From the NCBI GenBank assembly GCA_000002435.2, contig CM018793.1: a stretch of 64,000 nucleotides of DNA; one strand, 5' to 3'. This document shows, in pieces, positions 16,681 through 18,435 of this stretch. Every line of letters starts with the position of its first letter. Position 1 is the stretch's first letter. Made by a program: the position numbers and the translations under genes. Under the pieces are notes generated by a model that had not been told where the DNA came from, did not search any database, and worked only from the letters and a program-made list of their open reading frames with translations. Origin of the DNA: Giardia intestinalis. Its lineage: Eukaryota.

Positions 16681-18435
16681 TCACGCCTTCCCCCTGCACA
16701 CGAACCACCAGCAGAGGAAGCCCACGAGGCCCCCCACGACAGCGACCACAGCGACGGAGATCCCCGCGATGGCCCCCGTGGAGAGCCCGCTCCTGTTGGT
16801 ACTCATAGACACACAGGAGGTCCCACTGCTGTCTAGACTGTACCCATCAACACACTCCCCACACACATCATCCACCACACAGCTCTTGCAGTCACTCACA
16901 GAGCACAGCACACACCCACTACCATCCCTGTTGGGCTTCTTACTACTGTCACAAGAGGTACACACAGCGACAGTCATACCAGCCCCAGTCAGAGCTGCTG
17001 GGGCTGTACACTGCGAACAGCCATCCACCCCCACATATGCCTTAGAGGTATCACCAGTGCCTACTAGTGTGCCAAGGGAGTTGCCACATGCCAATACAGA
17101 CTGTTGAGCATTGGTTGCTTCTGGGACTACGAAGTACTTATTATTCTCACTAACAGCGGTACAGACACCGTTGGCTGCTGTCTTGCACATGGACTTACCC
17201 GGCTGAGTTGACACACTATAGCAGCCTCCCATGTACAAGAAGTATCCTGTAGTACATGATGTACATGTATGATTGTTACAGTTATTCCCCTCTTTCTTTT
17301 CATTCCCAACACATAGTCCATTAATGGGGAACTCACTGTCCTTTCCACAGTATGAACAGTAGTGATGCTCCTTCCCTGTGTTGTCGATCACTATTGCATC
17401 GCAGGCTCCAGAAGTACCACCACAAGCCGTGGGGTCTTCACAAGTCTTCTCACACGTGACCGCTCCTCCAGCCCCTACCTTCTTTTGGTAGTTCACCTTA
17501 CAAGAGTCACAAGTAAACGAGCCAGAGAGGGTGCACGTTGCACAGCCGGGCACTCCATCTGTCGGATCGTCGCATGGGACGCACTTCTTGGCCCCGTCAT
17601 TCTTTAAGAAAAACCCTGGCTTGCACTTTTCACAGGTATCTATAGCGCCTCCTGGCCCGCACTTTCCGCAATCGCCAGCGCACGCAACGCATACGGCGGG
17701 GTTACCGTTCCCGCTGTCGTAGTAGCCATCGAGGCACGTCTTGCATTCTGGCTTAGCGCCGTTCTTGCTGCAGGTCCCGCAACCGGGGCTTCCCTTGTTA
17801 TTATCTGTCTTGCTGCTATCGTTGCTACATAGTATGCATTCGGCATCTCCGTCGCTCAAGAAGTTCTCACCAGTTGCTCCGCTTTGAGTGCAGGTGCCGG
17901 CGTCTATACACGTAGTCGTCCCGTCGGCCTCTTCCTTGACTATCTTAGCTCCATTACATGCCGTGCACTTTGGGCCCCCAGTTGCCGGGTTGTACTCACA
18001 CGTGGTGCAATCAGTTATTGCAGACGCCTTGCAGGTCATTGTCACAGGGTCAGCATAAGTGTTTCCAGTGCACTCATTACTATTCACGCATGCATTATCC
18101 TTCAGGAACGTATTTCCCTTACAAGAGGTACACTGGGTCGCCGACGTCTCACAGGTCAGGCAAGAGTCGTTGCACTTCTCACATGCGCCGTTACTATTTA
18201 GAAAGTATCCCTCTGTGCATGCAGTACACGTGGCAGCCCCCTTGTTACTGTCTGGCGCTGTGCATGTGGCGCAGCTCTCCACTCCCTTATATCCATTCGC
18301 TCCTGTGGCATCATGACAGAGTATGCACTCCCCACCAGGGGTCACCTTGTCTGCCCCATTCTGGAATATGTACTGACTATCTGTATTACAAGCAGTGCAC
18401 AGTCCTCCCTCAGCCTTTGTGCATATCTCACTCCA
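16681..18435 (-). CDS. VSP-family cysteine-rich surface protein, short class (584 codons), unit U7. Patchwork of U5 5' module, U3 middle module and U4-like 3' module. Headless.
   Basis: Tracker ORF 16681..18345 (554 aa, GTG-derived M at the V of KVTPGG). I translated 18435..18346 by hand: WSEICTKAEGGLCTACNTDSQYIFQNGADK-VTPGGECILCHDATG, no stop, preceded by TAG 18438..18436. Secondary ORFs 17127..17348, 17362..17607, 17640..17846 duplicate U3 8574..9293. ORFs 17958..18316 duplicate U5 14392..14705. Confidence 0.85.
   Translation of the reverse strand, partial: WSEICTKAEGGLCTACNTDSQYIFQNGADKVTPGGECILCHDATGANGYKGVESCATCTAPDSNKGAATCTACTEGYFLNSNGACEKCNDSCLTCETSATQCTSCKGNTFLKDNACVNSNECTGNTYADPVTMTCKASAITDCTTCEYNPATGGPKCTACNGAKIVKEEADGTTTCIDAGTCTQSGATGENFLSDGDAECILCSNDSSKTDNNKGSPGCGTCSKNGAKPECKTCLDGYYDSGNGNPAVCVACAGDCGKCGPGGAIDTCEKCKPGFFLKNDGAKKCVPCDDPTDGVPGCATCTLSGSFTCDSCKVNYQKKVGAGGAVTCEKTCEDPTACGGTSGACDAIVIDNTGKEHHYCSYCGKDSEFPINGLCVGNEKKEGNNCNNHTCTSCTTGYFLYMGGCYSVSTQPGKSMCKTAANGVCTAVSENNKYFVVPEATNAQQSVLACGNSLGTLVGTGDTSKAYVGVDGCSQCTAPAALTGAGMTVAVCTSCDSSKKPNRDGSGCVLCSVSDCKSCVVDDVCGECVDGYSLDSSGTSCVSMSTNRSGLSTGAIAGISVAVVAVVGGLVGFLCWWFVCRGKA

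Follow-up and report, generated by a model that had tools for sequence, protein, structure and literature searches.

A patchwork VSP pseudogene cassette in a linear array of Giardia intestinalis

Silent arrays of surface-antigen genes

VSPs are the variable coat of Giardia. In the WB isolate of Giardia intestinalis, more than half of the vsp genes lie in linear arrays, with spacers of about 60 bp and downstream members that all lack the initiator (Inr) (PMC2996952). GENECONV analysis of these arrays found recombination and "long regions of 100% identity", with the speculation that an array is either a non-functional reservoir or a set of discarded genes (Adam et al. 2010; PMC2996952). VSP pseudogenes (ψVSPs) outnumber intact VSP genes in WB, 208 versus 133 (PMC7000408); a 2022 preprint describes pVSP arrays without 5' parts (10.1101/2022.03.07.483299); and the paper on the ψVSP arrays of G. 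muris takes both ψVSP arrays and recombination/segmental gene conversion to have been shown before in G. intestinalis (PMC7641422). During encystation, Spo11 and Rad51 are induced (PMC8700996). Here, we examine a stretch of 64,000 nucleotides (nt) of G. intestinalis (contig CM018793.1, assembly GCA_000002435.2), hereafter the window, and in particular one VSP-coding unit in it, U7 (16681-18486). Only positions 1..33195 of the window are sequence, the remainder (33196-64000) being a run of N, and these 33 kb are entirely one minus-strand array. The array type and its recombination are already known (Adam 2010; Xu 2020); what is added here is a junction-level map.

With the WB linear arrays the locus shares the head-to-tail order, spacers of about 60 bp, CRGKA tails, downstream members without Inr, start codon or signal peptide, recombination with long 100% stretches and the frequent breaking of assemblies at arrays (PMC2996952; PMC7000408; 10.1101/2022.03.07.483299). 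There is no difference in kind: at least 15 units are present here versus "up to 10" in 2010, and individual junction islands are resolved that the WB array papers do not tabulate. The G. muris arrays are likewise tandem VSP pseudogenes without signal peptides, transcriptionally silent and inferred to exchange with intact VSPs by recombination/segmental gene conversion, whereas their VSPs end in GCRGK instead of CRGKA (PMC7641422); for this reason, and because three units match WB proteins at 100%, G. muris was rejected as the source of the array. Its arrays also adjoin telomeres, a position that is unsupported for the present array, as telomere repeats were searched for in the contig and none was found. 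The subtelomeric VSG arrays of Trypanosoma brucei are similar in being a big silent archive with multi-donor mosaics and short-homology junctions; yet the trypanosome mosaics form in the telomeric expression site during infection, whereas those described here sit within the silent archive itself. The vls locus of Borrelia burgdorferi also consists of contiguous promoterless, start-less cassettes of one surface-antigen family, but these are stable and donate one-way to the adjacent vlsE, whereas the present cassettes appear to recombine mutually and no expression locus is seen. Thus, of the traits of segmental-conversion systems (VSG, vls/vlsE, msp2, pilS/pilE), the silent, promoterless archive of partial genes is present; as to a dedicated expression locus, the 33 kb contain no start, promoter or signal-peptide copy, and the exact tracts found in intact genes are only suggestive.

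Our findings support a model in which U7 is very probably a real mosaic within a linear array of 5'-truncated, promoterless, start-less ψVSPs, made by repeated recombination among the units. The array derives from assemblage A, from isolate WB or a near-identical isolate, and each unit is a block coding for the mature VSP ectodomain, from about residue 105 to the transmembrane (TM) segment, CRGKA and stop, followed by a poly(A) signal and a spacer. Units that are misaligned or ectopically paired would recombine homologously, over and over, by non-reciprocal gene conversion and/or unequal exchange between sister chromatids or homologues, with strand exchange resolving in short common islands, mostly conserved Cys-motif codons. 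The array would in that case be a silent, recombining store of VSP sequence.

Unit anatomy and mosaic structure

The units were delimited by 14 CRGKA-stop ends on the minus strand (at 2974, 4909, 6823, 9940, 11753, 14886, 16681, 18487, 21600, 23502, 26625, 28554, 30430 and 32580), each unit being counted from its stop codon to the last base ahead of the following stop. U0 and U14 are incomplete, the one being cut at the window start and the other at the contig end (33195); the array therefore extends past its visible part, and its head, which in such arrays is often an intact VSP preceded by a non-coding region and Inr (Adam 2010; Xu 2020), lies outside the window. Long units measure about 3.1 kb and short ones about 1.8-1.9 kb.

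1..33195, minus strand: whole ψVSP linear array, 15 head-to-tail units (U0-U14) defined from CRGKA-stop ends
16681..18486, minus strand: U7, the unit in question, with a 584-codon stop-free frame (16681-18435) without ATG start or signal peptide
18436..18486, minus strand: inter-unit spacer after the U8 stop, with AGTGAAT at 18473-18479, GTGATAG-type repeats and stops in all frames

All 14 unit ends encode a TM helix and then (V/I)CRGKA-stop. Eight nt past the stop, a pattern test found AGTGAAT in 14 of 14 units, a heptamer that we take to be the Giardia poly(A) signal AGTPuAAPy. The spacer that follows (50-85 nt) contains 3-5 GTGATAG-like repeats and stops in all three frames; from the stop to the conserved anchor GATATGYACA there are 57-80 nt, a very short distance as in published linear arrays. 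Past the spacer, the reading frame reopens at …WSEICTKAEGGLCTAC…, and none of the 14 visible unit heads has an ATG or the N-terminal signal peptide of 14-17 aa found in functional VSP genes, the first in-frame ATG lying 48-283 codons downstream. The vsp initiator PyAATGTT occurs on neither strand of the 33 kb. The frame of U7 opens right after the spacer stops, at …WSEICTKAEGG…, with its first in-frame ATG 132 codons in. It encodes 25 CXXC motifs, 11.8% Cys, one GGCY, the TM helix and CRGKA, and matches the Pfam family PF03302 (Giardia VSP; E = 2.6e-37, 129 bits, cut-off 31.4). Among the 291 VSP homologues (E <= 0.001) returned by a search of 5.8 billion protein clusters, nearly all those with a named source are from Giardia, and the best cluster representative is 82% identical to U7. 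When aligned to VSPs with signal peptides (e.g. P0002, P0008 and P0023), U7 starts only at their residue ~103-107; the signal peptide and roughly the first 105 residues of a complete VSP are therefore absent from the units. Because ATG, signal peptide and these N-terminal residues are all missing, U7 and its fellow units are not functional VSPs but ψVSP cassettes in a linear array of G. intestinalis WB type.

U7 was painted with its maximal exact matches to every other unit, which resolved the following tracts and junctions (nt numbers count from the 5' end of the unit).

18386..18486, minus strand (nt 1-101): tract A, U2/U10-type, 101 nt identical, spacer and first coding nucleotides
18386..18401, minus strand: junction J1, 16-nt island common to tracts A and B, TGTGCACTGCTTGTAA, first CTAC motif
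18047..18401, minus strand (nt 86-440): tract B, U5-type 5' module, 355 nt with 1 mismatch, exact run of 257 nt
18047..18072, minus strand: junction J2, 26-nt common island TGCACTGGAAACACTTATGCTGACCC encoding CTGNTYADP, switch from U5-type to U0/U3-type
17151..18072, minus strand (nt 415-1336): tract C, U0/U3-type middle, exact over 922 nt to U0 and over 914 + 53 nt to U3
17061..17220, minus strand (nt 1267-1426): tract D, U6-type, 160 nt with 1 mismatch, overlapping tract C by 70 nt
17027..17084, minus strand (nt 1403-1460): tract E, U1/U2/U11-type, 58 nt exact
16844..16983, minus strand (nt 1504-1643): tract F, U4-type, 140 nt exact (…VLCSVSDCKSCVVDDVCGECVDG…)
16801..16843, minus strand (nt 1644-1686): 43-nt partnerless stretch encoding …SLDSSGTSC…, without match within the window
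16681..16800, minus strand: constant tail with TM helix, CRGKA and TGA stop, covered by the exact-match painting over nt 1742-1806

In a space of 1.8 kb, U7 thus switches donor at least five times, including a U5-type patch of 355 nt with two breakpoints. Exact matches elsewhere in the array cover 77% of the unit when matches of at least 100 nt are counted and 96.5% when those of at least 20 nt are. The peptide DSSGTSCVSMSTNRSGL of the partnerless stretch recurs in XP_001707667.1 (P0026), another WB array-type protein. The transition at J2 is abrupt: in 60-nt sliding windows, identity between U7 and U5 is 98-100% up to nt ~390 and 38-65% thereafter, with 40-60% past nt ~440, while identity to U0/U3 climbs from 52-80% to 100% across the junction. 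At sites that distinguish U5 from U0, U7 has 85 U5-type and 0 U0-type states to the left of nt 415-440 and 0 against 390 to the right (Fisher p = 2.6e-96). A 49-mer across J2 occurs once in the window. The J1 island is a junction in U5 too, and in U2, U4 and U10, where the junction overlaps are longer, it forms their end. Upstream, the identity of tract A continues into the identical 3' end of U8 and so spans the unit boundary.

The same structure extends over the array. U8 is a second patchwork, in which a spacer is followed by tracts of four types.

18487..21599, minus strand: U8, spacer followed by the four tracts below (exact-match painting), frame broken
21419-21564, minus strand: U4-type tract
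21133-21434, minus strand: U6/U13-type tract
20269-21144, minus strand: U1/U2/U11-type tract
18503-20313, minus strand: U5-type tract including the long constant block
22060-22506 (U9) and 29012-29458 (U12): GC-rich U9/U12 module

In half of the 14 full units (U0-U3, U8, U11 and U13), exact matches of at least 100 nt to other units cover 87-98% of the length, and U4, U5, U6, U9, U10 and U12 each have a private core of 300-700 nt. U1 and U2 are a whole-unit tandem duplicate, and the pair (U11|U10) resembles (U2|U1). Some identities are longer than a unit end: the 3' 1.8 kb of U3 with the spacer and the 5' 109 nt of U2 correspond closely to the U8 3' end, spacer and U7 5' end, and to the U13 3' end with the U12 5' end. 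Between exact tracts of at least 80 nt with different donors we counted 34 junctions in common islands, the tracts overlapping by 3-232 nt (median 44 nt). These islands are mostly conserved Cys-motif codons, and several recur in different units, namely TGTGCACTGCTTGTAA (first CTAC motif), GAGTGCATCCT…TG (ECILC), ATGTGCAAGACAGCAGCCAACGGTGTCTGTAC and TGTGGGGAGTGTGTTGATGG (CGECVDG).

The first-pass annotation had described the units as sharp-edged patchworks of common modules, and the painting of U7 and U8, the identity steps and the site split bear it out. Its composition of U7 (U5 5' end, U3 middle, U4-like 3' end) holds with coordinates corrected to 18047-18401, 17151-18072 and 16844-16983. 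For U8, the U1/U2/U11 middle and the constant block were confirmed; the "U6 5' end" was right in part, the first ~180 nt being U4-type. The GC-rich middle attributed to both U9 and U12 is real, with 285 + 155 nt exact and a GC content of 0.62-0.63 versus 0.52 array-wide, as is the use of a few modules in differing combinations, to judge by the exact-match tracts of the whole array. It had further proposed a comparison of module boundaries with the CTATCAC/GTGATAG spacers and with internal microhomologies. The spacer as recombination boundary can be ruled out, for tracts run through spacers; junctions do fall in short conserved coding islands of the length given above.

Several further observations concern the layout and the frames of the units. 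From U13 to U0, long (L) and short (S) units are arranged as L-S-S-L-S, a pattern that recurs nearly three times, with U13, U8 and U3 spaced by ~11.7-11.9 kb, which hints at an old 5-unit higher-order repeat; such a repeat was rejected for the variable regions, where exact-match sharing has no excess at the 5-unit distance. The number of GTGATAG-type repeats varies from 3 to 5 among spacers (e.g. 18436-18486, 16614-16680 and 4830-4908). An open frame of 577-1023 codons from spacer to CRGKA, without start codon, is preserved in nine of the 13 units complete at both ends (U1-U7, U9 and U10), which fits recent homogenisation or a constraint to remain usable donor sequence. About half of the 1-nt deletions relative to near-identical paralogues lie within the last 5 kb of the contig (28291-32527), where they disrupt the reading frames of U11-U13; the U8 frame is also broken by 1-nt deletions, at 21276 and ~19098. 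Many of these deletions drop one base from a short run of identical bases, and either genuine decay or errors of a long-read consensus close to the contig end could account for them. A clear pseudogene lesion is seen in U13 (30430-32579), which is collinear with U6 over nt 1-526 and then with U5 from its nt 1540 onward, so that ~980 nt of ectodomain are deleted with the junction out of frame. On the plus strand, antisense open reading frames (ORFs) of 256 codons recur in the long constant block (714-1484, 7669-8439, 12599-13369 and 31273-32043), three copies being identical and one having 3 differences; copying of the block explains them most simply, and they are not evidence for a gene.

Recombination and its alternatives

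Chance is excluded as the origin of the tracts, because at a background identity of 40-60% exact runs above ~15 nt are unexpected, and 100% identity at all codon positions beside 40-60% identity requires homologous recombination. That purifying selection or retained ancestral polymorphism produced the pattern instead is scarcely credible. The junction islands do coincide with conserved Cys-motif codons, and one module is 88-92% conserved in an intact VSP of assemblage E (P15); yet over lengths of up to 922-1666 nt the tracts agree in every nucleotide, also at synonymous sites, before identity drops abruptly to 40-60%, the informative sites are partitioned with perfect incongruence, and selection at the protein level is unable to give such a pattern. 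As to the kind of recombination, the first-pass annotation had named segmental gene conversion. Recombination stands, but not conversion specifically, to which unequal crossing-over plus duplication is an alternative given the identities that cross unit boundaries. We nonetheless consider it rather unlikely that unequal crossing-over and block duplication did everything, with hybrid junctions as crossover points and blocks duplicated again. Long identities, spacer included, span unit boundaries, the tandem pair U1/U2 has its counterpart in (U11|U10), and the L-S-S-L-S order is nearly threefold; the boundary-crossing identities and the U1/U2 duplicate indeed indicate that unequal exchange and duplication also acted. 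Variable-region sharing, on the other hand, has no 5-unit period, and short internal patches with two breakpoints are a conversion signature. The 355-nt U5-type patch of U7, lying between unrelated types, its five or more switches and its neighbours (U8 and U6), which differ from the neighbours of its donors, therefore favour gene conversion for at least some events. The annotation had also spoken of "active or recent use". Relative recency is supported by the 100% identity, synonymous sites included: the 0 differences in 922 nt point to a recent event, and since other common blocks differ by 0.3-1.5%, the events would be of several ages. Active use is unsupported: an expression site, promoter, start codon and signal peptide are all absent from the window, and the literature describes VSP switching without DNA change. 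These facts also bear on the idea of a programmed donor archive, modelled on the mosaic VSGs of T. brucei or on Borrelia vls→vlsE, from which segments would be copied into an expressed, promoter-bearing VSP gene as part of antigenic variation. The cassettes are silent yet keep full-length open frames in nine of 13 cases; signal-peptide-bearing chromosomal genes have exact tracts of 64-125 aa in common with them; Adam (2010) speculated on a "reservoir" and the gene that heads an array frequently carries a normal promoter and Inr (PMC2996952); and the G. muris ψVSP arrays were proposed as conversion donors (PMC7641422). However, VSPs switch without change of sequence or location under epigenetic and RNA interference (RNAi) control (PMC2996952; PMC2817412), the tracts common with intact genes are seen at the protein level only and may be old, and the VSP repertoires of AI isolates are reported to be highly conserved (PMC11169602). 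We regard programmed donation as improbable.

Several points weigh against the reading of U7 as a real recombinant, most of them through the assembly. The mosaic is known from one assembly, and the 33.2-kb contig, which contains array sequence alone, stops inside the array at 33195, the only true contig end seen, so the assembler evidently struggled with the region. The 1-nt deletions concentrate in U11-U13 near that end, as in a weakly polished long-read consensus. The exact 452-aa ATG-initiated product of U7 is absent from a collection of 15 billion proteins, and the J2 49-mer was unmatched in a scan of JGI metagenome contigs, which leaves U7 itself without independent confirmation. Consecutive old RefSeq accessions (XP_001705783/-84/-85) correspond to U4, to a U1/U2/U11-like protein of 427 aa without an identical unit in the window and to U0, where the window has U3, U2 and U1 between U4 and U0 (1-11752), a hint of some disagreement between the old and new assemblies over the intervening units; a collapse in the 2007 assembly may be the cause, or a second copy may exist elsewhere. 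Moreover, to judge from the alignments, gene conversion appears inseparable from unequal crossover where identities cross unit boundaries, and donor and recipient are not assignable. Even so, it is very unlikely that near-identical repeats were merged into a chimeric or collapsed consensus and that the mosaic units are misjoins. The junction islands of U7 (16-70 nt) and its U5-type tract (355 nt) are far below the needed read length, for a 33-kb contig with repeats of 1.5-1.9 kb that are 98.5-99.7% identical demands much longer reads; the flanks are 40-60% identical between units, which makes read placement unambiguous; and every unit shows a like patchwork. Three units, furthermore, match WB (ATCC 50803) RefSeq proteins at 100%, namely XP_001705785 (U0, 843 aa), XP_001705783 (U4, 499 aa) and XP_001703933 (U6, 446 aa), all of them internal-Met readings of the units. 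The first of these, a Sanger-era protein of 2007, equals U0 across its U3→U5/U8→U6→constant-block junctions and provides independent support for such mosaics. The preferred reading of U7 as a real mosaic made by recombination among units is thus retained.

Links beyond the array

Modules of the array are also found in intact genes. Exact peptide tracts are common to units and signal-peptide-bearing genes: 125 aa between P0064 and U12, 88 aa between P0028 and U14, 69 aa between P0045 and U12 and 64 aa between P0023 and U9, the comparison with P0028, P0045 and P0064 being made at the protein level only. The U12 sequence leading upstream into the GC-rich module is the 125-aa exact tract in P0064, and the module itself is near-exact in P0045; at the level of these peptides, exchange between archive and intact genes is suggested for the GC-rich U9/U12 module. 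The intact signal-peptide VSP of assemblage E P15 (P0002) reaches 88-92% identity with U7 in the U0/U3-type module, against 42-60% elsewhere, the similar part being aa ~121-300 of the U7 ORF (window ~17540-18075). From this protein similarity, the module seems to predate the split between assemblages A and E. Given the tracts common with intact genes and the P15 match, the modules therefore extend to intact genes and across assemblages. "VSP S7" (Q8I8W2, P0017), which was deposited independently, is a further mosaic of these modules, with a U9-type N-terminus and a 260-aa exact U5-type middle. As this combination is absent from the window, either more shuffled units exist elsewhere or the sequence is a PCR chimera. 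Among other WB array members, P0005, P0013 and P0026 have a stretch homologous to the spacer in frame and annotated as the N-terminus (MLYSDSDS…GGCYK…), so some database "VSP" N-termini are translated spacer.

For annotators, the junction map carries a caution: a "VSP" gene model that starts at an internal Met in an array of this kind is a truncated reading of a pseudogene. What the map illustrates, and cleanly, is a phenomenon already in print, not a new one. The junction map, with exchange at short conserved Cys-motif islands, tracts that ignore the spacers and open frames in most units, renders the "reservoir" hypothesis concrete and testable. A bolder form of that hypothesis, which we hold to be unlikely, is that the start-less array is a working donor archive whose tracts are copied between units and into promoter-bearing VSP genes, including the array head or dispersed genes, over periods such as those of clonal growth, encystation or infection; in a variant, it would serve as a broad-spectrum template for VSP-silencing small RNAs. 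If true, G. intestinalis would renew its expressed antigens at the DNA level, atop the accepted epigenetic/RNAi switching.

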